Position numbers and translations under genes: made by a program. A DNA stretch of 64,000 bases from an uncultured Chlamydiae bacterium (GTDB lineage: Bacteria > Chlamydiota > Chlamydiia > Chlamydiales > JAJFMA01). How positions within the stretch are numbered: position 1 is the first letter of the stretch; each line of letters begins with the position of its first letter. The stretch covers positions 54,000 to 117,999 of the forward strand of contig CAWBNS010000013.1 of assembly GCA_963790215.1 (NCBI GenBank), given 5' to 3'. Below the pieces are notes generated by a model, which saw nothing but the letters and a program-made list of their open reading frames with translations, was not told the DNA's origin and searched no databases. This document shows positions 12,547-54,179 of the stretch, one piece after another.

Positions 12547-12649
12547 ATTCGTGCCCTTGCCCGTGTGCGTGTGCGTGCCCGATCAGCTTGATCGCTATGC
12601 GGGATAACCTTGTTGTGCAAGTTTTCCGGGCACGGGCAAGGGCACGAAT
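12547..12649. repeat. Hairpin element (GTGCCC/GTGTGC units)
   Basis: attcgtgcccttgcccgtg..cccg (from 12547) is complementary to cgggcacgggcaagggcacgaat (ending 12649). It lies in the divergent promoter region between the LRR and GH9 genes. Confidence 0.7.
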
Positions 12650-12734
12650 GTAGGCAACGCAACGATAAATTGACATGAAACAAAAATATCAATTATTCTA
12701 TTAGTGATAGATAAAACAAAATAGGACAATTACT

Positions 12735-15700
12735 ATGATGATCCTGTTTAGAACTATTTCCTTTATTTTCATTCTCTCTCTGTTTAATTTACATGCCGCC
12801 GATACTCGGCCTACGAAAACTTCCACGGTCAAGATTATGAATGCAGGGGGAACAAGTGGAGAGATTCAGGATTTCCTGTATTTGCACGACACGGACTTGC
12901 AAAAGCGAGAATATGTGGTTGGCTCTGTCTCCCTAACGGCTGGGGACCAGACGGTTAAGGATAAGGGGGATGGAACGTTTACCGGCAGTGGAACGGGCAA
13001 GTTCGACTACGTGACCGGGCAGTTTTATGTTAAGTTTACCAAAATTCCGCCAAAGAGCACTCCGATTACGTTAACATTTACTTACTATCGGACGGCTTCA
13101 ACGACGACTACAACCCCTACAACTCCTACGGCTCCTCCCTCGACTCCGACAACAACAGGGGCCACTACTGACACGTTTGTACCGGCAACAGGTCGGGATC
13201 GATTGCCGGCTGATAAACAAGGTGCTTTCCCCGTTATGATTCCTCAATACAACGGAATCAATCAGCTGCTGCTTTTGTCTAATCAGTGGGTGATTGTGGC
13301 GGTGGACCAGACGGCTGATTTAACGAAGCAGATCCAAAATTTTATAGACGCTGATTCTTCATTTAAAGGCATTGATTTAGCGGCGGCACAGGCAAAATGG
13401 CTGTCTACTTCGTTAGCCGACCAAAAGCCGGATTATACCTCCATGAAGACGAATATTTTGGCGCCGGTGAACAAATATTACGTTAAAGCGCGAGAGAAAA
13501 CGAGCGAACGGCAAATGGCCGATCCTGCTTTCTTTTCAATCACAAGCAGTGACGATCCCGATTACTCACAGGGGCAAACACCTCTGCAGGTTGCGCATTT
13601 TATCACTTCACTAGGAAGGGCTGACTGGGCAGGCAATAATGCGCCTTACTCTACTTATGCGGTTTATTCTTATCTTCAATTCCCCTTCCCTATGAAGGAT
13701 GGTAAAACTTATACAATCTCTGCAGATGACGGTAAGTCTGTTACATTCACCTATGATGAATTCCGCAGCGTATCCCGATCCATCAAAACAAACCAGATCG
13801 GCTACTTACCATCGGGTAAGAAATATGCGTATTTGGGCGGATATTTGTGGGATTCGGGTCCTATGGATTTTTCGGCTGCAAAAACGTTTCATGTGATTGA
13901 TGTGAAGACAGGTACTGAAGTGTTCTCTGGTAATATTTTGGCTAAAGGCGCCAGTGCACAATCGGGTGAAAACCTGTATGAGATGGATTTATCTGGTTTG
14001 ACGACAACGGGTGACTACTTTATTTCGATTCCTGGCGTGGGTCGTTCATGGACATTTCACGTAGGTAAGGATGCGTATGGAGAGGCCTTCTACACGATGA
14101 TTCGTGGGTTGTATATGCAGCGCAGTGGAATGGCTGTCGGGCCTCCTTACTCCAACTGGCCTCGCAAGGCATATCATAATGTACCGGTTTACGAAAACGA
14201 CATTATTGAGCTTACACCACGAAACCTTCGCAAAAGTGTAACGCCCTATACTACACCTGAGACCTGGTCAGAGATAGCCGATTTTGATGTCTCTGGTGCT
14301 AGCATCGACAAGACTAAGGTTCATCAGGATGGTACGGGTGGTTGGTATGATGCGGGCGATTATCAAAAGCGATTATTTCATTATAACAACTTAATGGCAC
14401 TTTTATATCTGTACGAATTAAAACCGCAGAATTTTTCTGACAACCAATTGAATCTGCCTGAATCGGGAGATGGAGTTCCAGATATCTTAAACGAAGCTGA
14501 GTGGGGTTTAAAGGTCTGGAGCAATAGCATGGATGAGAATGGGGGTGTTTCTTCGCGCCTGCTTTCTAATTCACACCCTGCTCCGGATGATCCTGCTTAT
14601 CCTTATTCGTATGGAAAACGAACACGGTATGCTTCGTTATCGTTTGCAGCGGCCGCAGCGCAATTTGCACGTTTAGTTAAACCGTTCAGCGCAAGCAAAT
14701 CGAGTCAATGGCAGGCTTTAGCCGAGAAGGCGTATGCCTTCGGGACTAATCCAGCAAACAAATTAACGAACTATGTGATGCATGCGAAGACAAATAGGGG
14801 AACTGGAACTGCTTATACGATGACGTACACTGAGGACGACAATTTTAATGGTCCTTTCCTGGCTGGTGCCAAGATGCAGATGTATATGCTCACCAAAGAT
14901 AAATCGTATCTAGATGGGCTGACAACGTTGCTTGCACAGATGCAATCGCCAACAAACAAAGTTCCTAAGACTGTAACACCAGGTAAATTGGAAACGCAGA
15001 ATACCGCCTTATTACCGGGAACTTGGCCTTATACAAACCGTGATTTTATTCACTGGTTATTGGCTCCTGTTATTTTGGACACTGAAATTCAAACGGCTTT
15101 AGGTGCCACTGTCACGGCTACTTGGGCGAAAACCTTTACAAATATAGCGGATGGATATTTGAAATTTTACAGTACGCATCCTTACCGCATTTCGTGGGAT
15201 CCTACTAAGAATACAGGATTGGCCTGGGGCGCTAGTGCGATGACGAATCCGGCTGTGTTCTTGATTCTGGCCTACTACACAACTAAGGACCAAAAATACC
15301 TGGATGCTGCGGTAGCTGACGCAGACTTTATGCTCGGGGCTAATCCGATGGGTATGTCATGGACCACAGGGATGGGTTTTGTCTATCCCGTAAAGAACCA
15401 CTATCGGTTCAACGATTACAATGCGTGGATGGATCCTTTCCCAGGAATCATGGTTTATGGGCCGAATGAGCTAACCTTAAAAGATTTTGATGGAATCTGG
15501 TATCCAAAAGATACAGACGGTACGGTGCATAACTTTTTGTCGGCTAAAATGCTAGGGTCGGATGGTAAGGCGAGTATTCCTGTTCTACGTCGTTGGGTCC
15601 CTCACAACTACTTCAGCGTGGGGCAGAATGAGTTCACCATCTGGGAGACAAATGCGGGTGCGATCTTTACGTATGGGTATTTGTTAGATCAGCCTTGGTC

Positions 15701-15773
15701 GCCTAGCAGCGATCTGAAGAATCGCAAACCTCGTGATGAGCGGTTGCTGTTTGGGTTGTGGTATTTGCCCTAA
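12735..15773 (+). CDS. Secreted glycoside hydrolase family 9 (endoglucanase-like) with Thr/Pro linker and Ig-like CelD-N domain
   Basis: Signal peptide MMILFRTISFIFILSLFNLHA. GH9 signatures GGWYDAGDYQKR and NEFTIWETNAG. The Ig-like N-domain pattern is IKTNQIGYLPSGKKYAYL. Confidence 0.85.
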   Translation: MMILFRTISFIFILSLFNLHAADTRPTKTSTVKIMNAGGTSGEIQDFLYLHDTDLQKREYVVGSVSLTAGDQTVKDKGDGTFTGSGTGKFDYVTGQFYVKFTKIPPKSTPITLTFTYYRTASTTTTTPTTPTAPPSTPTTTGATTDTFVPATGRDRLPADKQGAFPVMIPQYNGINQLLLLSNQWVIVAVDQTADLTKQIQNFIDADSSFKGIDLAAAQAKWLSTSLADQKPDYTSMKTNILAPVNKYYVKAREKTSERQMADPAFFSITSSDDPDYSQGQTPLQVAHFITSLGRADWAGNNAPYSTYAVYSYLQFPFPMKDGKTYTISADDGKSVTFTYDEFRSVSRSIKTNQIGYLPSGKKYAYLGGYLWDSGPMDFSAAKTFHVIDVKTGTEVFSGNILAKGASAQSGENLYEMDLSGLTTTGDYFISIPGVGRSWTFHVGKDAYGEAFYTMIRGLYMQRSGMAVGPPYSNWPRKAYHNVPVYENDIIELTPRNLRKSVTPYTTPETWSEIADFDVSGASIDKTKVHQDGTGGWYDAGDYQKRLFHYNNLMALLYLYELKPQNFSDNQLNLPESGDGVPDILNEAEWGLKVWSNSMDENGGVSSRLLSNSHPAPDDPAYPYSYGKRTRYASLSFAAAAAQFARLVKPFSASKSSQWQALAEKAYAFGTNPANKLTNYVMHAKTNRGTGTAYTMTYTEDDNFNGPFLAGAKMQMYMLTKDKSYLDGLTTLLAQMQSPTNKVPKTVTPGKLETQNTALLPGTWPYTNRDFIHWLLAPVILDTEIQTALGATVTATWAKTFTNIADGYLKFYSTHPYRISWDPTKNTGLAWGASAMTNPAVFLILAYYTTKDQKYLDAAVADADFMLGANPMGMSWTTGMGFVYPVKNHYRFNDYNAWMDPFPGIMVYGPNELTLKDFDGIWYPKDTDGTVHNFLSAKMLGSDGKASIPVLRRWVPHNYFSVGQNEFTIWETNAGAIFTYGYLLDQPWSPSSDLKNRKPRDERLLFGLWYLP

Positions 15774-15785
15774 CCAGGTTGCTTA

Positions 15786-15961
15786 GAAATCACATTATGC
15801 TGTTTTTCGACGCAAAGACGCAAAGACGCGAAGGTTCGCAAAGATAGTCTAAAAGACATAAAAATTTAAAAAACTAAAATTAGTTTGTTTGTAAAGAACC
15901 GTCTTTGCGAACCTTCGCGTCTCTGCGTCTTTGCGTCGAAAAACAACATAATGTGATTTTT
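15786..15961. repeat. Hairpin element (CGCAAAGA units), ~58-bp arms and ~57-nt spacer
   Basis: aaatcacattatgctgtttttcgacgcaaagacgcaaagacgcgaaggttcgcaaaga pairs with tctttgcgaaccttcgcgtctctgcgtctttgcgtcgaaaaacaacataatgtgattt. It lies between convergent genes. Confidence 0.85.
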
Positions 15962-15986
15962 AAAGAACCTTAACTTGAAAGTATCG

Positions 15987-17312
15987 CTAAACGGAGACCA
16001 ACTCCTGCGAGTGGGACAAACTTCGCAACACGCCGCTTTCGACTAAATAAACTTCTTCCGGCTCAATGGAGTTACAAAGATGTTTAAGACTATCACTTTG
16101 CAGCACAATAAAATCGACCTCACGCAATGATATGAGCAGCTCGACAAACTCAGGATGAGGATCCAGATCGCGCAAATAGACAACAACTGCCCAACCTTCA
16201 CGTCCTGAAAGCTGACGAAGATGTGCATACGTGTCCGCAGACAACCCATCGGCCGAATACACACCAACCACCGCCATACGCTGCCCCGAGAGAGCATGCT
16301 GCAACGCAAATAGATGCTCCTCGTCAAACACCTTATTGCTCACATCCCGCTCCAACAATCGCTGCGCTAAATCCGCAATCGACACTTGCGCGCAACCAAA
16401 ACGCTCAATCGCAATTCCCGCCGCTACGTTGGCAAGTTGCGCTCCTTCAGCTAGAGAAAGTCCACTCGCCACGGCACAGGTCAACATCGCCAATACAGTA
16501 TCGCCTGCACCAGTGACATCCTTGATCTCACGTACCTGTACAGGAAAATCCTCGCGTCGTCCCTCAGCATAAAACAAAGAAATACCTTCTTGAGAGCGAG
16601 TCACCATCAAAACCTCAGCCTTCGATGCCTCTAGCACGCGCTCCGCCACTTTCTCCAATGGTGCATCAGAAGAAAGCCCTGAAGCGGCGCGAGCCTCCGA
16701 TAGATTTGGCTTGATTACCGTAGCTCCTGCATACCTGTGAAAGTCCACCCCCTTCGGATCGACAATAATAGGAATGCCTCGAGCTCGCCCTTCCGCAATC
16801 AAACAAGTCAACAACCGCGGACTGAACATGCCTTTGCCATAATCGCTAATGGCAATGACTTTCACGTCCTGAAGCGCTTCTGGAAGCTGTGCTAGCAGAT
16901 ATTCTTCCAATTCCTGCGACAACACATGCGTCTCTTCACGGTCAACTCTGACCAATTGCTGATTGTCGGCAATAATACGATTCTTCACAGGTGTAGGATG
17001 ATTCGATTCTTCCAGAATCAACGATACATCTACACCGTCGCTATGCAAAACCTGCTTCAAAAGACGCCCTGAACTATCAGATCCGACTCGCCCTACAGCT
17101 TTCACTTGCATGCCTAGCGCGAGCAGATTCAACACCACGTTGCCAGCACCTCCTGGGCGGTGTTCCTCTCGACTGACGCGCACAACAGCAACTGGAGCTT
17201 CCGGAGAAATTCGGCTCACCTTGCCTATGGTATAGGTGTCGAGCAGAAAATCACCCGCAACGAGGACTTTTCCTGGAGAGATCCGGCTTAATTTTCCAAC
17301 TAATCTCACCAT
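15987..17312 (-). CDS. hldE: HldE/RfaE-like D-beta-D-heptose 7-phosphate kinase with a degenerate C-terminal adenylyltransferase-like domain
   Basis: pfkB kinase motifs GGAGNV and DVTGAGDT are present. The C-terminal ~105 aa align with domain II, but the HxGH motif is replaced (VGVYSADGLSADTYAHL). Confidence 0.75.
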   Translation of the reverse strand: MVRLVGKLSRISPGKVLVAGDFLLDTYTIGKVSRISPEAPVAVVRVSREEHRPGGAGNVVLNLLALGMQVKAVGRVGSDSSGRLLKQVLHSDGVDVSLILEESNHPTPVKNRIIADNQQLVRVDREETHVLSQELEEYLLAQLPEALQDVKVIAISDYGKGMFSPRLLTCLIAEGRARGIPIIVDPKGVDFHRYAGATVIKPNLSEARAASGLSSDAPLEKVAERVLEASKAEVLMVTRSQEGISLFYAEGRREDFPVQVREIKDVTGAGDTVLAMLTCAVASGLSLAEGAQLANVAAGIAIERFGCAQVSIADLAQRLLERDVSNKVFDEEHLFALQHALSGQRMAVVGVYSADGLSADTYAHLRQLSGREGWAVVVYLRDLDPHPEFVELLISLREVDFIVLQSDSLKHLCNSIEPEEVYLVESGVLRSLSHSQELVSV

Positions 17313-18271
17313 AATTTACCCGGTACTAGATAATTTTCCACATAGTCTCCCACATGTTCCTCAAGGGTACCGCACAGTGCCTGGTCACCCAATACACTCC
17401 GTGCCTTTGTCATGTCTGCGCATGTATAGTTTTGGTATTTCCCAATCAGGTCTGCAGGCATCGGCGTGTACTCAATGTGGGCAGGCTTTGCGAGCGCGCC
17501 AAAAACAGCGCGAGCAAGAGAATTCCAGGTATTAGGTACGCCAGTTCCAATGTTAAAAATGCCACCCGCAGCATTGTCTAAGAAGGCTGAGGTCATTTTT
17601 ACCGCATCCTTGACATAGAGAAAATCACGCTGCTGATCACCGTCAGCAAATCTGCTCGGTTCGGTAGATTGAAAGAGACGGATCACTCCCTCCTTCTGCA
17701 CGTTTGGCACCATCGCCGTAATGACAGACGCCATACGTCCTTTGTGCACCTCATTCGGACCAAAGACGTTAAAATACTTCAGCCCAACCACCTTATCCAA
17801 AACCCTCTGACGCTTCATCCACAGGTCGACCAAATGCTTGGAAAAGCCATACATGTTCAGAGGTTGCAGCTCGTCAAGCTGATCATGATGGTCGGTAAAA
17901 CCCAACGAACCATCTCCGTAAGTAGCTGCCGATGAAGCATAAATAAATCGGATATCGTGCTTAAGCGCCACTTCTGCAAGCTTAATCGTGTAGCGATAGT
18001 TGTTTTCTAAAAGATACGCGGCATTGCGCTCAGTGGTGCTAGAGCAAGCCCCAAGATGAATGATCGCCTCTACCCCCGTGTGATTTGCCTGCAACCACAC
18101 CAGCAACTCATCTATCGTCAGCAGCTCCAAAAACTGCTTGCCGACAAGATTCTTCCACCGCTCATCCGTCCCTAAATCATCAACAGCAATAATGCGGGTC
18201 TCCCCACGCTCATTCAGGTGTTTCACCAGGCATGATCCGATAAAGCCTGCAGCTCCCGTCACTATGATCAT
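17306..18271 (-). CDS. hldD: ADP-L-glycero-D-manno-heptose 6-epimerase
   Basis: Rossmann motif MIIVTGAAGFIGS and SDR YxxxK (YGFSKHL). It overlaps hldE by 7 nt. Confidence 0.8.
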   Translation of the reverse strand: MIIVTGAAGFIGSCLVKHLNERGETRIIAVDDLGTDERWKNLVGKQFLELLTIDELLVWLQANHTGVEAIIHLGACSSTTERNAAYLLENNYRYTIKLAEVALKHDIRFIYASSAATYGDGSLGFTDHHDQLDELQPLNMYGFSKHLVDLWMKRQRVLDKVVGLKYFNVFGPNEVHKGRMASVITAMVPNVQKEGVIRLFQSTEPSRFADGDQQRDFLYVKDAVKMTSAFLDNAAGGIFNIGTGVPNTWNSLARAVFGALAKPAHIEYTPMPADLIGKYQNYTCADMTKARSVLGDQALCGTLEEHVGDYVENYLVPGKLW

Positions 18272-19430: not shown

Positions 19431-19837
19431 AAAGAAAAAAACAGGATGATGAGGATCGCCTTCGCGGCAGGATGGGCAGGATATTGGTTGCTTGACTGAG
19501 TTCATGGCGGTTCAAAGTATGCTGTTTTGATTAAACGCAAAGGCGCAAAGAAGATTTTTGAAACGCTTTTTTTGAGCGGAGCTCAATAGGTCAGAACCGG
19601 CACCGGACAGCAAGGGCGGTCATAATTTTGACATCTCTGTAGCGCCCTTGCTGGTCTTGGTGCCGGTTCTCCTCAGCTTGCTTCGCAAGAACTGTATACT
19701 GTTCCCAACTCTTTCTTTGCGCCTTTGCGTTTAATCAAAACAGCATACTTTGAACCGCCATGAACTCAGTCAAGCAACCAATATCCTGCCCATCCTGCCG
19801 CCGAAGGCGATCCTCATCATCCTGTTTTTCTTTTTAA
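19428..19837. repeat. Composite nested hairpin element, ~125-bp outer arms
   Basis: Outer arms 19428-19553 and 19712-19837 contain CAGGAT units followed by CGCAAAG units. An inner inverted repeat (IR) is formed by ggtcagaaccggcaccggacagcaagggcg (about 19589-19618) and cgcccttgctggtcttggtgccggttctcc (about 19643-19672). Confidence 0.85.
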
Positions 19838-24085: not shown

Positions 24086-24122
24086 TTTTTGGAGTGCGGT
24101 GACTTGTCACTGCACTCCAAAA
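24086..24122. repeat. Short hairpin of the TTGGAGTGCGG...CCGCACTCCAA family
   Basis: The sequence ttttggagtgcggtgacttgtcactgcactccaaaa is a near-perfect palindrome with the GACTTGTC core. Confidence 0.8.
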
Positions 24123-25632: not shown

Positions 25633-25723
25633 AAAACAATTCTCTCGTTTATAACTTATCACCATTATTATAACACAAATCAAATTGATAATCTAAACAT
25701 CGCATAAAGCACGATATTTAATT

Positions 25724-25892
25724 ATTTTTCAGGATAACAGGATGAACAGGATAAAACTAAAAACGAATTGAGCTTTAAACGATAAAAACGATATAACGAT
25801 AAAAAGGATAAAATCCAATTAGCATAAGGCCGTATATTAAAAGCTAAATTCGTTTTTAGTTTTATCCTGTTCATCCTGTTATCCTGAAAAAT
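25724..25892. repeat. Hairpin element (CAGGAT units), ~45-bp arms
   Basis: atttttcaggataacaggatgaacaggataaaactaaaaacgaatt pairs with aattcgtttttagttttatcctgttcatcctgttatcctgaaaaat. Confidence 0.85.
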
Positions 25893-25990
25893 AAAAAAAA
25901 TGAATTTTGCTAAAAGCACGTTCCTGTCCCGATTTGCTACCAAATTGATCATGAGATATACTGATTCCTCAACGATCTGAGAGGAGCACT

Positions 25991-26398: not shown

Positions 26399-27598
26399 AT
26401 GACACCGAGTAAGCCTGCTCCTCAGGGTATTCGTGGCTTTTTTAAGCTAATGCTCTCCGGCATTTGTATGGGATCAGCCGATCTCATCCCGGGAGTGTCA
26501 GGTGGCACGATCTGCTTTATCCTCGGTATCTATGCCGATCTCATTGAAAGTATCCGCTCATTTAATTTTCGCGCTCTAAAGCTGCTCGCGCGCGGTCATT
26601 TTTGGCTGTTTCAAAAACAGGTTGCCTGGGAGTTTCTGCTCTCTCTCGGATCAGGGATCGTGATCGCCTTTGTCTCACTAAGTCAGCTCATTCACTATTG
26701 GCTGGAAGTTCCTTTATACCGAGGTTACCTTTACTCCGCCTTCCTTGGTCTAGTGTTTGGATCTGTCTATTTCTGTATGCGGCAAGTACGTTTATGGAAG
26801 TGGTCACGGGGTGTTGCCTTAGGGCTAGGCGCTCTTTTAGCTTTTATTTTTACGGGAGCAGATTGGCAAATCGAGTCAACAGAGCCATTATATGATGTTC
26901 GTATCGCGCTGAATACGCCTGATCCTGTCCTGAACTATGACACCGAGCGTTCGATGATTACGGATGTTCCGCAATCGACGTTGGCGGCTATGCTCGCGGG
27001 ACAAATCCTTAGCCCTGACACCATCGTCTACAGTCATAATGAGAACATCGAGGGCACGATGGCGCAGTTTGTTACACCGCGAGAAGCGAGTGTGATTGAA
27101 CCCTGGCTCATCGCCTGCGGCACGATGGCCTCTTGCGCGTTGCTGCTCCCGGGCATCTCTGGAAGCTACCTCCTAACCGCCATCGGCGTGTACCCGATGA
27201 TCATCGGAGCGCTAGTCGATTTTCTAAGCGGATTAGGCAACTTCAGACTCGATGGCCCTTCAGGATTGATTTTAGCCAACGTTTTTATCGGTATTCTCAT
27301 CGGCCTAACCTCGTTTAGTCGTGTAGTGAGCTGGCTGTTGCGGCACTATCATGATCTGACAATTGCAGCGATGACGGGAGCGATGGTAGGCGCTACGCGC
27401 GTTCTTTGGCCGTTCCACAGCTTTACCTACATGATCCAACCCTTGAAGCCTCATCACGCCCCTTCTCTTGTCCTGCTGGAGCCTCTTCCTCCCGACTTTT
27501 CGACAAGCCAGCCTTGGGTAGCTCTGCTGTATCTCTTGATCGGGTTCGCAGCAGTGATCGCTCTGGAGACGATTGCTAGGGGAAGAAAGAGGGTGTAA
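26399..27598 (+). CDS. DUF368-family polytopic membrane protein
   Basis: Duplicated motifs DLIPGVSGGTICFILGIY and LLLPGISGSYLL. An insertion of about 75 aa between the halves makes it longer than I recall for the family. Confidence 0.65.
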   Translation: MTPSKPAPQGIRGFFKLMLSGICMGSADLIPGVSGGTICFILGIYADLIESIRSFNFRALKLLARGHFWLFQKQVAWEFLLSLGSGIVIAFVSLSQLIHYWLEVPLYRGYLYSAFLGLVFGSVYFCMRQVRLWKWSRGVALGLGALLAFIFTGADWQIESTEPLYDVRIALNTPDPVLNYDTERSMITDVPQSTLAAMLAGQILSPDTIVYSHNENIEGTMAQFVTPREASVIEPWLIACGTMASCALLLPGISGSYLLTAIGVYPMIIGALVDFLSGLGNFRLDGPSGLILANVFIGILIGLTSFSRVVSWLLRHYHDLTIAAMTGAMVGATRVLWPFHSFTYMIQPLKPHHAPSLVLLEPLPPDFSTSQPWVALLYLLIGFAAVIALETIARGRKRV

Positions 27599-27600
27599 TA

Positions 27601-27690
27601 ATGGACAAATTAGAAGGCTACAGGATGGACAAGAACCTTGGTTCTGCGTTTTTGGACTAGACTCTTGTCCATTAACCGTCCATCGTCCAT
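27601..27690. repeat. Imperfect hairpin element (ATGGAC/CAGGATGGAC units)
   Basis: atggacaaattagaaggctacaggatggacaagaa pairs imperfectly with ctcttgtccattaaccgtccatcgtccat. It is weaker than the other elements. Confidence 0.4.
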
Positions 27691-27741
27691 ATCTTCTTTT
27701 TTCCCTTGCAGGTTGAGAAAAGTTCGCGATATAAGGATCTC

Positions 27742-29759: not shown

Positions 29760-29860
29760 ACTAAAGGGGCGCGAAGCGCTTTGCACCCTATTCCTCCTTC
29801 ATCCTTTATTTAAAACTTCTTCTGCGTTAAACTAGCTTGCCAAATACATTTAGGCATGAA

Positions 29861-30505
29861 ATGACACTTAATTTAATTGAACTGTTCCAGAGTGTACAAG
29901 GAGAAACAAGCTTCGCCGGATTACCGACAACCTTCATCCGACTAGCTACTTGCAACCTCAGATGCACCTGGTGTGACACTGCCTATTCGTTTGGGCGAGG
30001 TACACCTCATTCCTTAGCTGAAATCATGTCGCAAACGAAGAGTTTTGGTCATCGAAATGTTTGTGTTACAGGTGGCGAACCACTCCTACAGTCAGCTGTA
30101 GAGCCTCTTCTCCAGACATTATGCGACGAAGGATTTGTTGTCAGCTTAGAAACAGGCGGCTCGCTATCCACCGAAAACGTAGACCCTCGCGTTAGCACAA
30201 TCCTCGACATCAAATGCCCAGGCAGTGGGATGCACGAAAAAAATCATTGGCAGAACATGAGTCGACTCCGCAAACATGATGAAGTCAAATTCGTGCTCGC
30301 TCATCACGACGACTACCTCTACGCTAAAGAAATCTGCCACCAGTATAACCTGTCTGACCGAGTAAACGAGGTGTTGTTCTCACCCGTGTTTGAACAACTC
30401 GATGCAAAGGATTTGGTGGGTTGGATTCTCGCTGATCGTTTATCCGTACGCCTCAATCTGCAAACACACAAATTCATCTGGCCACCTGCGACAAAGGGAG
30501 TGTAA
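29861..30505 (+). CDS. queE: 7-carboxy-7-deazaguanine synthase (radical SAM)
   Basis: Motifs CNLRCTWCDT and ELFQSVQGE. ATG 29861 preferred. Confidence 0.8.
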   Translation: MTLNLIELFQSVQGETSFAGLPTTFIRLATCNLRCTWCDTAYSFGRGTPHSLAEIMSQTKSFGHRNVCVTGGEPLLQSAVEPLLQTLCDEGFVVSLETGGSLSTENVDPRVSTILDIKCPGSGMHEKNHWQNMSRLRKHDEVKFVLAHHDDYLYAKEICHQYNLSDRVNEVLFSPVFEQLDAKDLVGWILADRLSVRLNLQTHKFIWPPATKGV

Positions 30506-30509
30506 TTGT

Positions 30510-31184
30510 ATGACCTCTAAAAGAGCTATTATCCTATTCAGTGGCGGCCTTGACTCGACGATCATGCTTGCAAAGGCACTCTACGCGGGCAGAGAGTGTC
30601 TCGCCATTACATTTGATTATAAGCAACGTCATCATGTTGAAATCGCGGCGGCAAAACAGATCGTGAGCCATTATGGCATTCTTCATAAGATCATCTCGCT
30701 TGACCCTCGATCTTTTTCACGCTCCTCGTTGATCTCGGATGCCAATGTACCAAAAGAGAATCGTAATGCCATGCAGATCCGCGAAGGGGGGATTCCTCCA
30801 CCTACGTGCCAGGAAGAAATACTCTGTTTTTAGCCTATGCCGTAGGCCACGCTGAAACATTTGAAGCACAGGAGATCGACCTAGGAGTTAACAGCACGGA
30901 TTCCGATCCTATCCAGATTGTCGTCTAGCCTATATTCAAGCGTACCAAATGGTGATCAATCTGGCTACGCAACAAGCGGTAGAAGGACGCGCGCCCAAAA
31001 TCATCACACCTCACATAGAATTGACGAAAGACCAAATTATCCATGAAGGCGTTCGCTTTAATGCTCCCACTGGAAATGAACATTCAGCTGCTAGGATCCT
31101 CCAGAAGAAGGCGTTCATTGCGGACGTTGCGATGCATGCTAACGATTAAGAAAAGAGGGCTTTCGCCCGCGCTGGGATGACTGA
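30510..31184 (+). pseudogene. queC: 7-cyano-7-deazaguanine synthase, multiply disrupted
   Basis: The N-terminus is intact (ILFSGGLDSTIMLA..FDYKQRHHVEI). After about 30800 the QueC-like sequence continues only by switching frames ([22 protein letters not shown]..; PKIITPHIELTKDQII..). The C-terminal Cys cluster frame reads FSC*DPPEEGVHCGRCDAC*RLRKEGF, with in-frame TAG at 31092 and TAA at 31140. Confidence 0.8.
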
Positions 31185-36416: not shown

Positions 36417-36516
36417 AATCATGAGCGTCTCTGTGCACTCTGTGGTGATTAATTTTTCAATAGTGTTTCAAAATTTTACCACAGGGATCACAGAGTGCAC
36501 AGAGACGCTCATGATT
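36417..36516. repeat. Hairpin element (CACAGAG units), ~30-39-bp arms
   Basis: aatcatgagcgtctctgtgcactctgtggt pairs with accacagggatcacagagtgcacagagacgctcatgatt. It uses the same unit type as the outer element at 4385-5022. Confidence 0.8.
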
Positions 36517-47908: not shown

Positions 47909-47916
47909 GGTTTGTA

Positions 47917-47997
47917 AAAGGACAGCAGGGACGACAGGGACATCAGGGACTATGTGCGACGTCCTTGCAGTCCCTGATGTCCCTGCAGTCCCTTTTG
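47917..47997. repeat. Hairpin element (CAGGGAC units) in the nuoE-nuoF spacer
   Basis: cagggacatcagggact (47935-47951) pairs with agtccctgatgtccctg (47969-47985). Outer arms are imperfect: aaaaggac / gtcccttt. Confidence 0.75.
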
Positions 47998-48007
47998 GAG
48001 GTCTCCT

Positions 48008-49273
48008 ATGCCTGAGCAACGCATATTGATGGCCTTTATGGACAATGACGATCAGCGCAATGTCTCCACCTATGAAAAAAACGGCGGCTATCAGGCCATC
48101 AAAAAAGCCATCCCTGCTATAGCTCCAGCGACTCTAATCGATATGGTGAAACAATCCGGCTTGCGCGGCAGGGGTGGTGCTGGTTTTCCTACAGGGATGA
48201 AATGGGGCTTTGTCCCGCAGACGATTTCTCCGCGTTATCTGGTCTGTAACTGCGACGAAAGCGAACCGGGCACTTTCAAGGACCGACTCATCATTGAGCG
48301 CGATCCACACCAGCTCATCGAAGGGATGATTCTCGCCAGCTACGCGATCGGTGCAGAAAAGGCCTTCATCTACTGCCGTGGAGAGTTTTTTGAAGGGTTA
48401 GAAATCCTACAAAAAGCAGTCGACCAAGCAAAAGAAAAAGGTCATCTGGGCAAATTGGACATCATCGTGCATCCAGGCGCTGGCGCCTACATCGCCGGAG
48501 AAGAAACCGCACTGCTAAATTCCCTCGAAGGGTTCCGCGCTACACCACGACTTAAACCACCTTTTCCGGCTGTAGCAGGCCTGTATAGCAAACCTACTGT
48601 TGTCAATAACGTAGAAACGCTCTGCAATGTCGTACATATCGTAAATCGTGGCGTAGAGTGGTTCCTAACTATTGGCAAACCAAAAAATACCGGAACTAAA
48701 ATCTACCAAGTCAGTGGTCACGTGCAAAAGCCGGGATGCTATGAATTTCCCCTTGGAATATCTCTACGAGACCTTTTAGAAACTGCAGGTGGGATGCGCC
48801 ATGGACGTACATTCAAAGCCTGTTATCCTGGTGGTTCTTCCTGCTCGCTGCTCACCGACTTAGATGCAGCCATGGATTTCGAGTCCCTAGCGACGTATAA
48901 AACCGCACTAGGTACTGCCTCGGTTATTGTGATGGACGATTCGGCCGATATGGTTAAAGTGGCCAATCGTCTGATGCAGTTTTATCAAAACGAATCCTGC
49001 GGTAAATGCACACCTTGCCGTGAGGGTACGCGCTGGATCACACAAATGCTTACACGCATCGAAAATGGTGGAGGAACCTACCAAGATTTAGATGTAATCC
49101 TCGACGCCTGCCGTGAGATGGCTGCCAACTCATTCTGTCCGCTCGCCGTTGGCGCAGCACCGCCTGTCGTCAGCGCCATCCAGCTATTTCGAAGCGAATT
49201 CGAAGCCTACATTCGACGCAATCCCAATGCAGAAGGACATCCACAAATGAAGGTAGCGTATCCATATGCTTAG
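48008..49273 (+). CDS. nuoF: NADH-quinone oxidoreductase subunit F
   Basis: Motifs GRGGAGFPTGMKW and ESCGKCTPCREG. Confidence 0.9.
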   Translation: MPEQRILMAFMDNDDQRNVSTYEKNGGYQAIKKAIPAIAPATLIDMVKQSGLRGRGGAGFPTGMKWGFVPQTISPRYLVCNCDESEPGTFKDRLIIERDPHQLIEGMILASYAIGAEKAFIYCRGEFFEGLEILQKAVDQAKEKGHLGKLDIIVHPGAGAYIAGEETALLNSLEGFRATPRLKPPFPAVAGLYSKPTVVNNVETLCNVVHIVNRGVEWFLTIGKPKNTGTKIYQVSGHVQKPGCYEFPLGISLRDLLETAGGMRHGRTFKACYPGGSSCSLLTDLDAAMDFESLATYKTALGTASVIVMDDSADMVKVANRLMQFYQNESCGKCTPCREGTRWITQMLTRIENGGGTYQDLDVILDACREMAANSFCPLAVGAAPPVVSAIQLFRSEFEAYIRRNPNAEGHPQMKVAYPYA

Positions 49274-49289
49274 TACAAAGATAGAAATT

Positions 49290-49395
49290 AAAAAAAATCA
49301 GGATAAGCAGGGTCGCAAGCGGCAGGATAGGCAGGATAAAGTTTTTTATCCTGCCTATCCTGCCGCTTGCGACCCTGCTTATCCTGATTTTTTTT
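49290..49395. repeat. Perfect 51-bp-stem hairpin (CAGGAT units) flanked by A8 and T8, in the nuoF-nuoG spacer
   Basis: aaaaaaaatcaggataagcagggtcgcaagcggcaggataggcaggataaa, a gttt loop, then the exact reverse complement. Confidence 0.9.
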
Positions 49396-49468
49396 ACACA
49401 ACTCATCTTCTTCTTAAAAGTTTTATTGTTTTTCGTGTTTTTGTGTTTAAGAAAATGGCAGGTCTCAT

Positions 49469-51652
49469 ATGACGCAGGAACTGGAACTGATCCAATTCAC
49501 TATCGACGGTCAGTCACTCACTGTTCCTAAGGGAACCACCGTCTATAATGCCGCTCGAAGTCTGAATATCGACATTCCTATCTTTTGCTATCACGACCGC
49601 ATGCCGCCATTTGGCGCCTGCCGCATGTGCTTGGTTGAGGTAGAAAAAATGCCCAAGCTGCAAACCTCCTGCACGCTCGAAGCGACCGAAGGCATGATCG
49701 TTCACACACAGGCTGAAAATGCCGTCAAAGGACGAGAAGGCATCCTAGAGTTTCTGCTCATCAACCACCCTCTAGATTGCCCCATCTGCGATCGCGGTGG
49801 AGAGTGCCCCTTACAAGACCAGACAGTCAAATTTGGGCCCGGAAACAGCCGTTTCTACGAAGAAAAGCGTCACTTTAAAAAGCCGATTCCCCTAGGGCCT
49901 GTTTTGATGCTCGATCGTGAACGCTGCATCGTCTGTGCACGCTGCACACGCTTTGGAGACGTTGTCGCAGGCGACCACGCCCTAGAATTCATCGACCGCG
50001 GATTTAAGACAGAAGTGGGCACACCCGACGGTGGGCCAGCCGATTCCAAATTCATCGGAAACACCATCATGATCTGCCCTGTGGGGGCGCTCACCAGTAA
50101 CGTGTATCGCTTCCGCGCACGTCCATGGGACAACAAACATACACCAACAACTTGTCCGTTGTGTCCAGTGGGCTGCAGCATGATCCTCGACGAACGCGAC
50201 GGTGAAATCATGCGTACACGCTCGCATGAAAACAAAGCAGTGAACGATGTATGGCTATGCGATAAGGGTTGGTTTGGATATGAATTCTCCTACCATCCTG
50301 ACAGACTAAAAGAACCGCTTATCCGCCGCTCAGGTACTTTACAGCCTGCATCCTGGGAAGAAGCACTGACACTTGTCGCACAAAAAATGCAACAAGCCGA
50401 GACCGTCGCAGCATGGGGCGGAAACAACCTCACCGCAGAAGAAAATGTGCTGCTGCAAGATCTCATACGCAACGGTGTAGGAAGCAATAACGTCGATCAT
50501 CGTGTCGGTCAACCCATTCTACCACTAGCTGAAGAAGGAATCCCCCCAGGCATGGAGATGTCCATCGGCGCTTGCGAAGAACTCTCCTTCGCTCTGCTTC
50601 TAGGCCTAGATATCACCGAAGAATTTCCCGTCGTATGGCTGCGTTTAAAGCAAGCCATCAACCGCGGTGCAGAGATCACCTACATCGGACATTACGCACC
50701 TGAAATCGCACCGCACCTCGCCAAAACCGTCGTACATGCACCTGGGGATGAACTCGAAATCATAAAGAAGCAAATCAATGCACTTCCTAATAAAAAGGGA
50801 GCGATCTTCATCGGGTCGCAGTACCTCGCCTCACCTCATCGTCGAGCCATTTTAGCCGAACTTAAAAAGCTCGATCTACCGTTAAATATCATGGAAGGCC
50901 GTGAAAATAGCATGGGGGCACGGATGGCGGGAATGCATCCAGAAATGGGCGCACAACCAGGTTTAAGCATTCTTCAAGTTTTAGAAGCATCAACATGGGA
51001 TTTCCTCTATGTTGTCGGAGCTAACCCTGCGCAACTACCTAAGGTTAATTTCTTAGTCGTGCAGGATCTGTTTCTTACACCCGCAGCCCAACAAGCTGAT
51101 GTAGTTCTTCCTACACTCTGTTTTGTAGAAAAAGAAGGTTCCTTCATCAACATCGAAGGCCGTATACAGCAAATACGTCCAGGAAAACCTCGCCCAGAAA
51201 ATCTCATGAGTGATGCAGAGATTTTCCGGCGCCTTGCAGAGAAAATCCAATTCACACTGACAGAAACAGAAATCGAATCGTTGCAACTACAACGACCCAA
51301 AGAAATTTCCACGAGAAGCTCCCCACGCATAGCGCAAAATGGTTCTCTTGCGGCTACTTTCGCGCCTGCATTATTCAACGGTGGCCAGCGCATGCAACAT
51401 AATCCACATGTAACGCAACTGGTAAAAGAACCGCGACTCAGACTGCACCCTACAGATGGTTTAAAACGAGGATTGCAAGATGGTGATGTTGCTACGATAA
51501 CCGCAAATGGAAATTCTCTGTCAGCAAAAGTAAAACTCGATTCTAAAGTGGCCAGCGGATGCATCGTGCTTCCGCTAGGCTTTGACGAAGTACCCGTTCA
51601 TAAACTGAGCCAAAATCTGATCAACGGGTTTCCAGTCGAGGTGCGAAAATGA
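49469..51652 (+). CDS. nuoG: NADH-quinone oxidoreductase subunit G
   Basis: Motifs CYHDRMPPFGACRMC, HPLDCPICDRGGECPLQD and CIVCARCTRF. Confidence 0.9.
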   Translation: MTQELELIQFTIDGQSLTVPKGTTVYNAARSLNIDIPIFCYHDRMPPFGACRMCLVEVEKMPKLQTSCTLEATEGMIVHTQAENAVKGREGILEFLLINHPLDCPICDRGGECPLQDQTVKFGPGNSRFYEEKRHFKKPIPLGPVLMLDRERCIVCARCTRFGDVVAGDHALEFIDRGFKTEVGTPDGGPADSKFIGNTIMICPVGALTSNVYRFRARPWDNKHTPTTCPLCPVGCSMILDERDGEIMRTRSHENKAVNDVWLCDKGWFGYEFSYHPDRLKEPLIRRSGTLQPASWEEALTLVAQKMQQAETVAAWGGNNLTAEENVLLQDLIRNGVGSNNVDHRVGQPILPLAEEGIPPGMEMSIGACEELSFALLLGLDITEEFPVVWLRLKQAINRGAEITYIGHYAPEIAPHLAKTVVHAPGDELEIIKKQINALPNKKGAIFIGSQYLASPHRRAILAELKKLDLPLNIMEGRENSMGARMAGMHPEMGAQPGLSILQVLEASTWDFLYVVGANPAQLPKVNFLVVQDLFLTPAAQQADVVLPTLCFVEKEGSFINIEGRIQQIRPGKPRPENLMSDAEIFRRLAEKIQFTLTETEIESLQLQRPKEISTRSSPRIAQNGSLAATFAPALFNGGQRMQHNPHVTQLVKEPRLRLHPTDGLKRGLQDGDVATITANGNSLSAKVKLDSKVASGCIVLPLGFDEVPVHKLSQNLINGFPVEVRK

Positions 51653-51658
51653 GATACG

Positions 51659-51761
51659 CCTTGGAGTGCGGTGACTTGTTTGTCAACATAGGCGCTTTGC
51701 GCCATTTCAGAGACTTATGTTTTAGGATAACAAGTCGCCGCACTCCAAAGCGCTTCGCGCC
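51659..51761. repeat. Hairpin element of the TTGGAGTGCGG family in the nuoG-nuoH spacer
   Basis: ccttggagtgcggtgacttgtt pairs with aacaagtcgccgcactccaaag. It is followed by cgcttcgcgcc, which shares a 16-mer with 29768 in the opposite orientation. Confidence 0.8.
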
Positions 51762-51800
51762 GGTATTCTTAAATTTCCATAAGATGAGGGCCTCTTTCCC

Positions 51801-52778
51801 ATGCTAGAAGCCATATTAGGAGTTCTCCTCAAAGGCATCATCACGATTCTTATTCTCATGGGCTTTGCTGCCTATATGACACTGCTAGAGCGCGTGCTTA
51901 TGGCTCGCATGCAACTGCGCCTCGGACCCAATCGCGTCGGCCCTTGGGGCCTTTTACAACCCATTGCCGACGGGATTAAACTGGTCAACAAAGAACGATT
52001 CCAACCCGCTGGCGTCGCCAAATTCACCTATTGGCTGGCTCCAAGCATTTCACTTTTTATCGCTCTCTTTATCTTTGTTCTCATTCCCGTAGGGCCTCCA
52101 GTAACTCTATTCGGGCATGAAGTGCGTTTACAAATCGCAGACGTCAATGCAGGCATCGTCTTTCTACTCGCATTTTCTTCCCTTGCCGTCTACGGAGTCG
52201 TCTTAGCTGGTTGGTCCTCAAACAACCGCTACTCACTTCTTGGTGGACTACGCGGAACCGCCCAGCTCATCAGCTACGAAGTGCCTATGGGCCTATCCCT
52301 GCTCACAGTGGTTCTAGCAGCAGGCACGCTCAGTCTATCCGAAATCGTCGAAGCACAGCGCAACCATTGGTTTATCTGGTCTAATCCCATCAGTTTCCTC
52401 ATCTATCTCATCACCGCGTTCGCCGAGACAAACCGTGCCCCATTTGACCTTCCTGAAGCCGAACACGAGCTTACAGGCGGCTATCACACAGAATACGGCG
52501 GTCTCAAATTCGCCATCTTTTTTCTAGCCGAATACGTTAACATCCTCGCGGTCTCTTCCATTGCGGTAACGCTATTTATGGGTGGATGGCTCGGACCGGG
52601 CGATCTTCCTGTAATCTGGTTCCTAGCTAAATTAGCCGTCTTCGTCTTCTTCTTTATGTGGGTGCGCGCAACCATGGCGCGGTTTCGTTATGACCAACTC
52701 ATGAACTTCGGCTGGAAGGTGTTAGTTCCCTTAGCAACCCTGAATTTAATCGTAACTGCTTACTTTACTTTGGTGTGA
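51801..52778 (+). CDS. nuoH: NADH-quinone oxidoreductase subunit H
   Basis: [17 protein letters not shown] and [14 protein letters not shown]. Confidence 0.9.
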
Positions 52779-52779
52779 A

Positions 52780-53253
52780 ATGAAACAACAGTTGAAACGA
52801 GTTTGGTCTGTCATTGCCGGTCTTTGGATCGTGCTCAAATACGCCTTCAAAAAGCCAACAACCATCCGGTATCCCGAAGAAAGACGCAAACTACCCGACC
52901 GCTCACGTGGACGCCACTACCTCACCAAATGGGAAGATGGTAAGGAGCGTTGCGTAGGATGCGAACTATGCGCCATCGTTTGCCCTTCACAGGCAATCTA
53001 TGTAAAACCTGCTCAAAATAACCCAGAAGCACCCCATTCACACGGAGAACGCTACGCCGCCGATTTTCAAATCAACATGCTGCGCTGCATCTTCTGCGGT
53101 TACTGCGAAGAAGCATGCCCCACCGGAGCGATCATTCTCGGCAATGAATATGAATTAGCGGGATACGATCGAGAATCTTTGATCTATACCAAAGAGATGC
53201 TCACAGAAGTGCATCCTGGCGACTCCGGACGCGATCCACGGAGAGAAATATGA
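52780..53253 (+). CDS. nuoI: NADH-quinone oxidoreductase subunit I
   Basis: Two 4Fe-4S motifs: CVGCELCAIVCP and CIFCGYCEEACP. Confidence 0.9.
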   Translation: MKQQLKRVWSVIAGLWIVLKYAFKKPTTIRYPEERRKLPDRSRGRHYLTKWEDGKERCVGCELCAIVCPSQAIYVKPAQNNPEAPHSHGERYAADFQINMLRCIFCGYCEEACPTGAIILGNEYELAGYDRESLIYTKEMLTEVHPGDSGRDPRREI

Positions 53254-53744
53254 TCGTTGATTATATCCTCGGTACCATTCTCATTTTCTCTTCGCTGGGC
53301 GTGCTGCTGTTCCGCAAACCCGTGCACGCAAGCCTTTCTTTTTTGCTGACATTGCTTGCACTTGCCGCTCTCTATTTGCAACTCTCCGCCGAATTCATCG
53401 CCGTGATGCAAGTCCTTGTCTACGCAGGGGCTATCTTAGTTATTTTCATGTTCGTGATCGTTCTCTTCCAAGACGCTCATCAGCAGATCGAAAAATATGA
53501 AAGCCAAAGCGCACCCGTGTTGTTGATCGGTGCTGCCTCCGCCCTCGTCATTACACTCTTATTTCTTGGACACAGACTACTTGGCTTAACAACACCACGC
53601 GCACAACTACCTGAGGGATACGGAAGTGTACAGTCACTTGGACATGCGCTCTATCTGGATTTCTTCTTCCCTTTTGAAGCAGTCATCCTGATGTTTCTCG
53701 TCGCGGTCGTAGGAGCGCTATACATTGGAAAAAAGGTGAAATGA
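53250..53744 (+). CDS. nuoJ: NADH-quinone oxidoreductase subunit J
   Basis: Position in the operon, a hydrophobic protein, and VYAGAILVIFMFVI. Confidence 0.85.
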   Translation: MIVDYILGTILIFSSLGVLLFRKPVHASLSFLLTLLALAALYLQLSAEFIAVMQVLVYAGAILVIFMFVIVLFQDAHQQIEKYESQSAPVLLIGAASALVITLLFLGHRLLGLTTPRAQLPEGYGSVQSLGHALYLDFFFPFEAVILMFLVAVVGALYIGKKVK

Positions 53745-54043
53745 TGGATATATCGCTCTTCGTCTTTGTCAGCATGGCTATGTTCGCCATAGGAATCATC
53801 GGTGTATTAGCTAAACGCAATGCGCTGATTTTGTTTCTCTCCATCGAACTCATGCTCAACGCTGCAAATCTGCTGTTTGTCACGTTTGCACGCCAATGGG
53901 GCAATCAGACCGGGCTTGTTTGGGTATTCTTTGTTCTCGTTGTTGCCGCCGCAGAAGCCGCAGTAGGCCTCGCGATTATCATCAATCTGTTCCGCTCAAA
54001 ACAGGTTGTCGATGTAGATCAATACAATGTTTTGAAGGGGTAA
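53741..54043 (+). CDS. nuoK: NADH-quinone oxidoreductase subunit K
   Basis: 100 aa with SIELMLNAANL and AAAEAAVGLAI. Confidence 0.9.
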   Translation: MMDISLFVFVSMAMFAIGIIGVLAKRNALILFLSIELMLNAANLLFVTFARQWGNQTGLVWVFFVLVVAAAEAAVGLAIIINLFRSKQVVDVDQYNVLKG

Positions 54044-54063
54044 CCAATACGATGATACGAGAA

Positions 54064-54179
54064 TTTTTGGAGTGCGGCGACTTGTCGCCGCTTTTATACA
54101 GCTCGACTTGTCGAGCTGCCAGAGGCATCGACAAGTCGATGCCTTTGAAAGCGGCGACAAGTCGCCGCACTCCAAAAAA
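54064..54179. repeat. Compound hairpin element with four CGAC(TT/AA)GTCG palindromic cores, in the nuoK-nuoL spacer
   Basis: The outer arms are ttttggagtgcggcgacttgtcgccgcttt and aaagcggcgacaagtcgccgcactccaaaa. Inside are agctcgacttgtcgagct and ggcatcgacaagtcgatgcc. Confidence 0.9.

Follow-up and report, generated by a model that had tools for sequence, protein, structure and literature searches.

Chlamydiae are obligate intracellular bacteria in which mobile DNA is usually considered scarce, and the stretch of chlamydial DNA analyzed here raises the question of what the long hairpins in its intergenic spacers are and how they arose. The stretch comprises 64,000 nucleotides from an uncultured Chlamydiae bacterium (GenBank assembly GCA_963790215.1, contig CAWBNS010000013.1, positions 54,000 to 117,999; hereafter the window). 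A first-pass annotation of the window, made from the letters alone, had described a set of intergenic hairpins whose arms are short tandem arrays of purine-rich units and which follow one rule of construction but differ in sequence. We found that the hairpins include members of sequence families that recur across chlamydial genomes, and we put at about even the chance that they are non-coding, non-autonomous palindromic repeats organized like REPINs, the inverted doublets of a short module resembling repetitive extragenic palindromes (REPs). If this reading is true, REPIN-like selfish palindromes are numerous in environmental chlamydiae and have apparently gone undescribed.

Long inverted repeats in the intergenic spacers of the window

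The window has a G+C content of about 47% and belongs to an environmental chlamydia, whose NuoF is 85% identical to that of an uncultured metagenome-assembled genome (MAG) and 72 to 78% identical to those of Chlamydiales and Parachlamydiaceae MAGs. Inverted repeats were located by a repeat finder and by an independent scan of our own, and both recovered hairpins where the annotation had placed them. After merging, the long inverted repeats form 11 regions, all of them intergenic, whereas 30 block-shuffled windows averaged 0.13 regions with a maximum of 1. Single-strand DNA folding of the elements gave z scores of -6 to -32, and the arms of many are much longer and more perfect than those of ordinary stem-loops (89 nt at 100%, 52 nt at 100%, and 69 nt at 93%). 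Tandem Repeats Finder and periodicity scoring confirmed that most arms contain tandem units, which are 6 to 9 nt long. The window yielded no Rfam match at the gathering score and, when scanned for them, no tRNA or tmRNA genes.

Parts of the original description need adjustment. Most of the listed sites are hairpins, but region 27598-27706 is weak (z, -2.8), with an imperfect ATGGAC/GTCCAT hairpin at 27603-27690, and 29760-29836 is not a hairpin at all (z, +0.2) and contains a single mini-hairpin together with a pyrimidine array that is unpaired. The element reported at 4405 is real, but it lies outside the range of 12547 to 54179 given for the set and is part of a 630-nt composite (4388-5018). 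In the GTGCCC and CTCTGTG elements the pyrimidine-rich arm comes first.

A directional module recurs at unrelated sites

The comparison set consisted of 80 nuoF loci from species-representative genomes, and a scan of metagenome contigs for the CAGGAT module contributed at least 120 loci (L numbers denote comparison loci). The CAGGAT module is present in 191 arms at 125 loci, and every copy is intergenic. The metagenome loci have almost no genes in common and therefore represent different sites. An nhmmer profile built from 146 metagenomic CAGGAT modules matched both arms of two hairpins in the window, at 19435/19832 (E values of 1e-9 and 5e-11) and at 49292/49393 (1.4e-10 for both), and also matched L003, L006, L009, L026, and L068. 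These matches place the elements at 19437 and 49289 in a single sequence family, and units recur across genomes, so that the idea of different sequences sharing only a construction rule has to be given up. Five CAGGAT copies of 201 nt in one metagenome have 79 to 94% mutual identity and unrelated flanks, with further arms on other contigs there. CAGGAT modules were also found in genomes whose NuoF proteins are only 62 to 78% identical. No recurrent transposase was found adjoining the CAGGAT loci; an Rpn/YhgA-like open reading frame (ORF), identified by eye, recurs at three of them.

Arrays of CAGGAT, CACAGAG, CGCA[AG]AG, GGGCAC, and GGGAC units recur as inverted pairs in other chlamydial genomes (L002, L006, L008, L009, L012, L026, L030, L043, L046, L056, L060, L065, and L068), and in 1.1 Mb of chlamydial sequence an inverted partner lies within 450 nt of about 60 to 85% of the arrays, depending on the unit type. 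Inverted pairs of these arrays were absent from 12 non-chlamydial loci. The recurrence of the same unit types across genomes bears out the earlier suggestion that the family extends to other genomes of the Planctomycetes-Verrucomicrobia-Chlamydiae (PVC) group. In most chlamydial genomes, the nuoE-nuoF, nuoF-nuoG, and nuoG-nuoH spacers measure 5 to 60 nt, and some are expanded by long hairpins of differing families: CGCAAAG in L002, CACAGAG in L006 and L008 (L008 also has GGAGTGCG), CAGGAT in L009, GGGCAC in L012, CGCAAAG enclosing GGGAC in L026, and CACTGAG in L043. Sequence-string and topic searches of the searchable literature found no published description of these chlamydial elements, and the annotation had likewise known of no named family; within the chlamydiae, the elements are apparently undescribed.

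Loci of NC10/Methylomirabilota also have hairpins with arms of tandem heptamers (L066 14772-14878, L069 3448-3527 and 6978-7070, and L072 60-131), where the heptamers are AACCGAC, GGCAATC, CCAATGG/CCAATGA, and CGTGAAA. Array-armed hairpins with lineage-specific units are therefore not confined to chlamydiae.

The modules are directional: an A-rich run is followed by 6- to 9-nt tandem units, which are often interrupted by a 3- to 4-bp mini-hairpin. More than 100 unrelated intergenic sites carry such modules, some as singlets and others as inverted doublets of either orientation, and modules often lie at the center or in the loop of other palindromes. The order of the CAGGAT module is A-rich run, TAA, CAGGATrrGCAGGAT, CG-NN-loop-NN-CG, and GCAGGATrrGCAGGAT, usually with a further CAGGAT unit downstream; the A-rich sequence upstream of the first unit ends in TAA, with A at position -1 in 92% of copies. 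The mini-hairpin between the units has a stem of 3 to 4 bp that occurs in compensated forms, CGCC/GGCG, CGGC/GCCG, CGAC/GTCG, and CGTG/CACG, and a fifth, CGCT/AGCG, comes from a 6-nt center. When centers that merely repeat CAGGAT-type units are excluded, both inner pairs are Watson-Crick in 12 of 18 distinct 7-nt centers. Among 41 distinct centers, 28 have a Watson-Crick outer pair, compared with 20.5 expected (maximum, 28 in 2,000 shuffles). The two arms of one element may bear different mini-hairpins, each of them self-complementary (L068, L097, L134, and L136), and local pairing is therefore kept where arm-to-arm pairing has been lost. With 27 arms at contig ends left out of the assessment, 114 CAGGAT arms are paired (77 with the partner downstream and 37 with it upstream) and 42 are internal singlets. 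We rejected a reading of CAGGAT as a CsrA-binding motif, since the CAGGAT copies lie hidden within perfect duplexes and the reading does not suit the remaining units.

Palindromes nest in the loops of other palindromes

The annotation had described the modules as combined mosaically. Modules do combine in one arm, but the mosaic appearance arises because palindromes nest in the loops of other palindromes. The three-shell palindrome at 19437-19829 (z, -32) contains an inverted repeat of 89 nt at 100% (19464-19552/19713-19801) and outer arms at 19437-19464/19802-19829. Its outer shell is a CAGGAT-module doublet (19437-19478/19787-19829) homologous to the compact element at 49289-49396; its middle shell is a 308-nt palindrome (19479-19552/19713-19786) that lies within the CAGGAT loop and terminates in CGCAAAG units; and its inner shell is a third hairpin at 19589-19673. 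The middle shell and the element at 15776 have in common the CGCAAAG array and its immediate 5' flank (ATGCTGTTTT..ACGCAAAG), with a mean column identity of 62% in the alignment. A CAGGAT element lies directly within CGCAAAG arms in L135, and an additional shell separates the two in L081. Further onion-like nesting was seen in L026, L006, and L114, and shells are present or absent among related loci. Because of this mosaicism, the clustering of hairpin halves collapsed into one large single-linkage cluster, which was of no use for defining element ends.

The composite palindrome at 4388-5018 is nested as well. CACAGAGnn arrays form its outer arms, in which 4405-4429 is paired to about 4975-5000 (about 85 to 95% complementary), and a 525-nt palindrome (4439-4965) sits at its exact center (GCTATAG / insert / CTATAGC). 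A second copy of the 525-nt palindrome, 98% identical, lies at 10082-10607 in another context and without a flanking direct repeat. The arms of this element hold a GTAG-type REP-like core, ATGTAGCCCACCGTG...CGGTGGG, with ATGTAGCCCACCGTG at 4597 and 10238.

At L060 2915-3544 and L190 6759-7130, palindromes have direct array copies on both sides (CGCAAAGGCGCA in L060 and GTGTGCGTGCCC in L190), and the arrays themselves may be insertion targets there. Apparent 12-bp duplications at these two loci are the arrays that flank the inserted palindrome and were dismissed as target duplications.

Sequence change within and around the palindromes

The two 525-nt copies differ by a clustered change of 6 of 7 nt (ATCTTAG to CACAGGT) at about 10522-10528, whereas the remaining 520 or so columns average 98% identity. 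The change breaks the long-range pairing and makes a perfect 15-bp local hairpin at 10513-10547 (compared with 4879-4908), AAAAACTTCACAGGT-CCTGA-ACCTGTGAAGTTTTT. A clustered change that yields a perfect hairpin is a classical mark of intrastrand template switching (quasipalindrome correction). Inversion was seen in another element: L132 (2254-2336) and L155 (6387-6469) have in common a palindromic element of about 240 nt that resembles a miniature inverted-repeat transposable element (MITE), with unrelated flanks and with direct flanking repeats of 10 bp (CGAAATCCAG) and 8 bp (AAATTTTG), and the central loop of 21 nt has opposite orientations in L132 and L155 ("flip-flop").

Direct flanking repeats of 7 to 11 bp occur at a minority of the non-array palindromes, namely 8 cases of at least 7 bp, compared with about 0.85 expected; these include L024, L033, L148, L200, and the L132/L155 pair. 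No target duplication was found at the array hairpins when the window and related loci were scanned. The numbers of units vary both between arms and between copies.

A candidate transposase in related genomes

A motif screen of all ORFs revealed one Y1 (HUH) transposase, on L098, and the same contig bears a strong CAGGAT module. The protein matches PF01797 and the NCBIfam model transpos_IS200 (70.4 bits; cutoff, 55). Its HUH motif and catalytic tyrosine align with those of IS608 TnpA, and the nearest solved structures are the TnpA proteins of IS608 and ISDra2; the structure comparison did not match the E. coli REP-associated tyrosine transposase (RAYT). Homologues number 3,411 at E values up to 1e-20, are mostly 154 amino acids long, and lie mostly on one contig each. 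The few with a named source include Chlamydiales, Verrucomicrobia, and Planctomycetes, and one (L201) is in the MAG that contains L002.

Y1 genes were found in L098 and L201-L207, and in 6 of 7 loci inverted copies of AGCCGYGnnnrCGGCGRCAGRRA flank the gene on both sides. REPs of the GTAG type (AGCATGTAGCC-stem-GTGA-stem) adjoin Y1 genes, and parts of REPs are amplified in tandem directly beside the gene as an 18-nt hairpin unit in 10 copies (L206 2970-3149) and a 66-nt two-hairpin unit in 6.3 copies (L204 2584-2999). The core of the 525-nt window element resembles these REPs. The bracket in L204, CAGGAA-GCCGTGAAACGGC-GGCAGGATAAAG, has the same grammar as the CAGGAT module, with a common stretch of 14 to 17 nt. 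We regard the Y1 transposase as a candidate mobilizer whose link to the arrays is not statistically established. Likenesses seen by eye between the other units and parts of the REPs that flank Y1 genes (CGCGAAG and hairpin A, GACAGAG and the tail, and GCTCAC/GGGCAC and hairpin B) are not claimed.

The 3' end of the L098 Y1 gene and the REP-like hairpins downstream of it are duplicated about 950 nt upstream (1562-1744 and 2395-2947), and an unrelated ORF of 274 amino acids separates the duplicate from the intact gene.

Comparison with known repeat systems

REPs and their transposases are reportedly the subject of work by Nunvar and colleagues from 2010 and of structural studies on the E. coli RAYT. 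Like REP and REPIN systems, the chlamydial elements consist of short extragenic non-coding modules with a small hairpin of their own, occur as singlets and mostly as inverted doublets that form a long hairpin, build clusters by insertion into or beside one another, lack target duplications, and can adopt an alternative clover fold. In relatives, a single-copy Y1/HUH transposase flanked by inverted REP-like hairpins is a candidate counterpart of the RAYT. In the clover fold proposed for recognition of REPINs, each module folds alone (Bertels & Rainey 2011, PMC3116915), and mini-hairpin pairing within each chlamydial arm fits this fold. The differences are that the chlamydial arms are arrays of 6- to 9-nt units with a mini-hairpin of 3 to 4 bp and no GTAG, that at least five unit families coexist and are nested several shells deep in a chlamydial host, that both relative orientations of the doublet occur, unlike in classical REPINs, and that the candidate enzyme scores as IS200-like and not as a member of the curated RayT family. 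The match to REPs and REPINs thus holds in most respects and fails for the array modules on GTAG and on curated RayT membership. The annotation had counted against its own proposal any match to a described family like REPs or bacterial interspersed mosaic elements (BIMEs) with a known RAYT; the organization does match REPs and REPINs and a RAYT-like gene exists in relatives, but this is not a described family and the transposase link is unproven.

Like the chlamydial elements, enterobacterial BIMEs are mosaics in which palindromic units alternate in orientation and are joined by characteristic linkers, and they lie between genes and in operons. Their units are REPs of 35 to 40 nt, whereas the chlamydial arms are arrays of 8- to 9-nt units, and BIMEs are not known to have palindromes nested deeply in loops. 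Foldback (FB) transposons of Drosophila and other eukaryotes are kilobase-scale elements with target duplications; the chlamydial hairpins are like them in having long inverted arms of short tandem subrepeats with variable copy number, a likeness of form that implies no homology. Cyanobacterial small dispersed repeats (SDRs), as Elhai and colleagues reportedly described them in 2008, are inserts of 21 to 27 nt that nest in one another and are embedded in tandem heptamer arrays. SDRs and the chlamydial elements are both very small nested mobile repeats, but their sequences and hosts differ and SDRs are not array-armed palindromes; SDRs are also mentioned by Bertels & Rainey (PMC3116915).

Among published repeats, the closest counterpart of the array-armed inverted pairs is GGGAATC of Xanthomonas, which, like GGGGAYT of Nostoc, forms intergenic heptamer arrays (Rehm et al. 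2015, PMC4692102). About three-quarters of the GGGAATC sites are convergent inverted pairs capable of forming stem-loops, and slippage was proposed as their origin (PMC4692102). The likeness extends to lineage-specific short tandem units that are almost exclusively intergenic and to a similar share of inverted pairs. The Xanthomonas and Nostoc repeats have one G-rich unit per genus and were studied as G-quadruplex formers, whereas the chlamydiae have several units, most of them not quadruplex capable; judged from sequence, G3 runs occur only in the GGGCAC and GGGAC units and not in CAGGAT, CACAGAG, or CGCAAAG. The chlamydial arrays also differ in their mini-hairpins, defined A-rich boundaries, and nested shells. 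Heptamers of the short tandemly repeated repetitive (STRR) type in cyanobacteria were reportedly described by Mazel and colleagues in 1990.

Origin of the hairpins

If the elements are REPIN-like, a module or doublet would travel as a single strand, in a hairpin-dependent manner, and enter DNA that is exposed in single-stranded form, for example in the loops of hairpins. The reaction would probably be catalyzed in trans by an IS200-like Y1 transposase that recognizes the clover fold of the mini-hairpin, as proposed for REPINs. Unit number would drift by slippage, perhaps also by cleavage and rejoining between identical units, and fold-back synthesis or intrastrand template switching would create and repair the complementarity of the arms, which would account for both doublet orientations and for perfect arms. 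Effects on transcripts (termination, RNase III cleavage, and 3'-end protection) would be incidental and would differ among copies.

Several observations weigh against this reading. Among L001-L200, only L098 has a Y1 gene, the 64-kb window has none, and one co-occurrence of Y1 and CAGGAT in about 120 loci is, by a rough estimate, not above chance. The L098 protein reaches only 31.4 bits against the NCBIfam RayT model REP_Tyr_transpos (cutoff, 80). The longest exact matches between Y1 flanks and the arrays do not exceed those in shuffled sequences, except for one 17-mer in the L204 bracket, and the CAGGAT profile matches that bracket only at an E value of 2.7. GTAG is absent from the CAGGAT, CACAGAG, CGCAAAG, GGGCAC, and GGGAC modules and is confined to the 525-nt element, in its core, and to the REPs that adjoin transposase genes; the mini-hairpin stems of the array modules are as short as 3 to 4 bp. 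For the CACAGAG, CGCAAAG, GGGCAC, and GGGAC families, similarity across genomes is at the level of the unit and does not extend to a full module. We infer mobility from dispersed copies and not from insertion or excision between close strains. Template switching alone can also yield compensated palindromes without selection.

In the main alternative, which we consider unlikely, the hairpins arise by mutation in place, without a transposase: slippage would make the arrays, fold-back template switching would turn them into palindromes, and copy-choice would spread and nest them. The marks of template switching and loop inversion are directly visible, unit numbers vary between arms and copies, both doublet orientations are what fold-back on either strand would produce, and target duplications are lacking; inverted heptamer pairs occur in Xanthomonas, with slippage proposed (PMC4692102), and in the NC10 loci L066, L069, and L072. 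Mutation in place does not readily explain, however, a module of 45 to 50 nt with fixed order and boundaries (A-rich run and TAA) and a kept mini-hairpin at more than 100 unrelated sites, nor its presence in genomes with such divergent NuoF proteins, and it does not explain the similar 201-nt copies in unrelated flanks. A more doubtful proposal is that the arrays, instead of resulting passively from slippage, would be written by the repeat system itself, either through repeated cleavage and rejoining by a Y1/HUH enzyme between identical 6- to 9-nt sites beside the mini-hairpin or through enzyme-free template-switch copying from loop to loop. Were it true, either route would be an unrecognized way to build self-nesting, foldback-like bacterial palindromes, one common to PVC phyla and perhaps passed between chlamydiae inside amoebae.

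We think it improbable, and somewhat more so than array writing, that the hairpins are RNA structures selected by the host, whose long stems would be useful as bidirectional terminators or as stabilizers or processing sites of mRNA 3' ends. Long inverted repeats are present in 22 of the 41 convergent spacers, in 36 of the 173 tandem spacers, and in 11 of the 58 divergent spacers, so that the placement between convergent genes and in operon spacers claimed by the annotation amounts to a tendency; an enrichment in convergent spacers is equally expected for tolerated selfish insertions. Textbook bidirectional terminators do exist among the copies, at 49289-49396 (A8/T8) and 19437 and in some elements of L026 and L043. 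But only 4 of 28 array hairpins have the 5' A-run and 3' T-run of a terminator and 5 of 28 have the reverse polarity, window elements lie between divergent genes (12547, 25717, and 36417), three more lie inside the nuo operon, and conservation extends beyond the stem to sequence and to mini-hairpins within the arms. As a class, the array hairpins are not canonical intrinsic terminators, and with common families among them they are not the unrelated ordinary terminators that the annotation had named as the outcome contrary to its view. Stems this long escape a consensus terminator scan, and its outcome says nothing about such structures. Ordinary MITEs moved by a DDE transposase, with terminal inverted repeats and target duplications of fixed length, are very unlikely; the non-array palindromes with 7- to 11-bp direct repeats would suit them, but target duplications are missing from the array hairpins, whose modules are found as singlets and in both relative orientations, and no DDE transposase recurs near them. 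Artifacts of assembly or amplification, such as fold-back chimeras, have a negligible probability. Short-read Logan contigs of the identical strain (ERR12037361) do stop at or inside hairpins at about 15970, 19431-19493, 25865, and 49318, yet the families occur in dozens of independent assemblies from differing projects and technologies, always in intergenic positions and with conserved modules.

The ends of these contigs indicate instead that the repeats fragment assemblies, and many of the CAGGAT metagenome matches likewise lie at contig ends. Hairpin repeats are probably underrepresented in MAGs, and breaks of short-read assemblies exactly at gene ends help to explain fragmented chlamydial MAGs and undercounted repeats. 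Individual copies, 49289-49396 above all, would be expected to terminate transcription or be cut by RNase III, and very stable hairpins inside essential operons (nuoE/F, nuoF/G, and nuoG/H) are expected to influence transcript termination, processing by RNase III, or the stability of the mRNA. The REPIN-like reading would also make the chlamydial elements a natural system in which to follow the expansion of a REP-like module, the upkeep of arm complementarity, and the coevolution of repeats with a domesticated IS200-like transposase outside Proteobacteria, and the unit families could serve as markers of strains or lineages.

Further elements and features of the window

Beside the composite palindrome at 4388-5018 lies an unpaired pyrimidine-strand array at 5069-5115, with 3.4 copies of TTTATCCTTCATCC, the complement of AGGAT-type units. 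The GTGCCC/GTGTGC...GGGCAC hairpin at 12547-12649 (arms 12547-12565/12631-12649; z, -6.9) and the CTCTGTG...CACAGAG hairpin at 36417-36516 (arms 36417-36444/36489-36516; z, -12) both lie between divergent genes. So does the hairpin at 25717-25899 (arms 25717-25779/25837-25899), which carries three copies of CAGGATAA, has its T-run and A-run in the polarity opposite to that of a terminator, lacks a mini-hairpin, and matches the CAGGAT profile only weakly through its 25730 arms (E value, 0.28). The CGCAAAG-array hairpin at 15776-15970 has arms of 69 nt at 93% (15776-15844/15902-15970) that contain the mini-palindrome GCGAAGGTTCGC, and it occupies the convergent spacer between a GH9 gene and a pfkB gene.

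The three hairpins in the nuo operon differ from one another. In the nuoE-nuoF spacer, the element at 47916-47995 consists of three AGGGACnnn units (arms 47927-47951/47969-47993; z, -6.4), and its right arm directly adjoins the nuoF ribosome-binding site. The nuoF-nuoG spacer holds the CAGGAT-module doublet at 49289-49396, with arms of 52 bp at 100% (49289-49340/49345-49396), a 4-nt loop, A8/T8 flanks, and a z score of -21. An inverted pair of GGAGTGCGGYGACTTGT with an GCGCGAAGCGC mini-hairpin lies in the nuoG-nuoH spacer at 51657-51761 (inverted repeat at 51657/51729; z, -8.4). This last element ends in the 16-mer GGCGCGAAGCGCTTTG (51746-51761, minus strand), which the annotation had found to be shared in opposite orientation with a second site; the match is exact, with a chance expectation of 0, and the other copy, at 29768-29783 on the plus strand, is a solo mini-hairpin where no long hairpin exists.

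A separate REP-like family, (GCGCGAAGCGC)-TTTGGAGTGC-GGCGAC-TT-GTCGCC, is represented in the window by the element in the nuoG-nuoH spacer, by a single REP-like palindrome at 24087-24122 (TTTTGGAGTGCGGTGAC-TT-GTCACTGCACTCCAAAA; z, -7.5), and by a branched palindrome at 54064-54178 (inverted repeat at 54064/54148; z, -17.5), in which GGCGACTTGTCGCC and TCGACTTGTCGA mini-hairpins lie within GGAGTGC arms. It was also seen in L003, L008, L022, L050, L054, and L145, and we take it to be widespread in PVC and soil-bacterial genomes. One frame of the repeat reads SGDKSPHSK, and its layout of mini-hairpin, linker, and hairpin is that of the REPs adjoining Y1 transposase genes.

A Pfam scan of 20 window proteins found no transposase. 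Between 42000 and 44000 the G+C content falls to 38%, compared with about 47 to 50% elsewhere, and this stretch, which holds small ORFs with an HTH_3 domain and ORFs without a Pfam match, may be a foreign island. At 29837-30833, two same-strand ORFs (29837-30505 and 30390-30833) overlap, the second matching positions 1 to 90 only of the QueC profile, and together they may represent a frameshifted or split queC.

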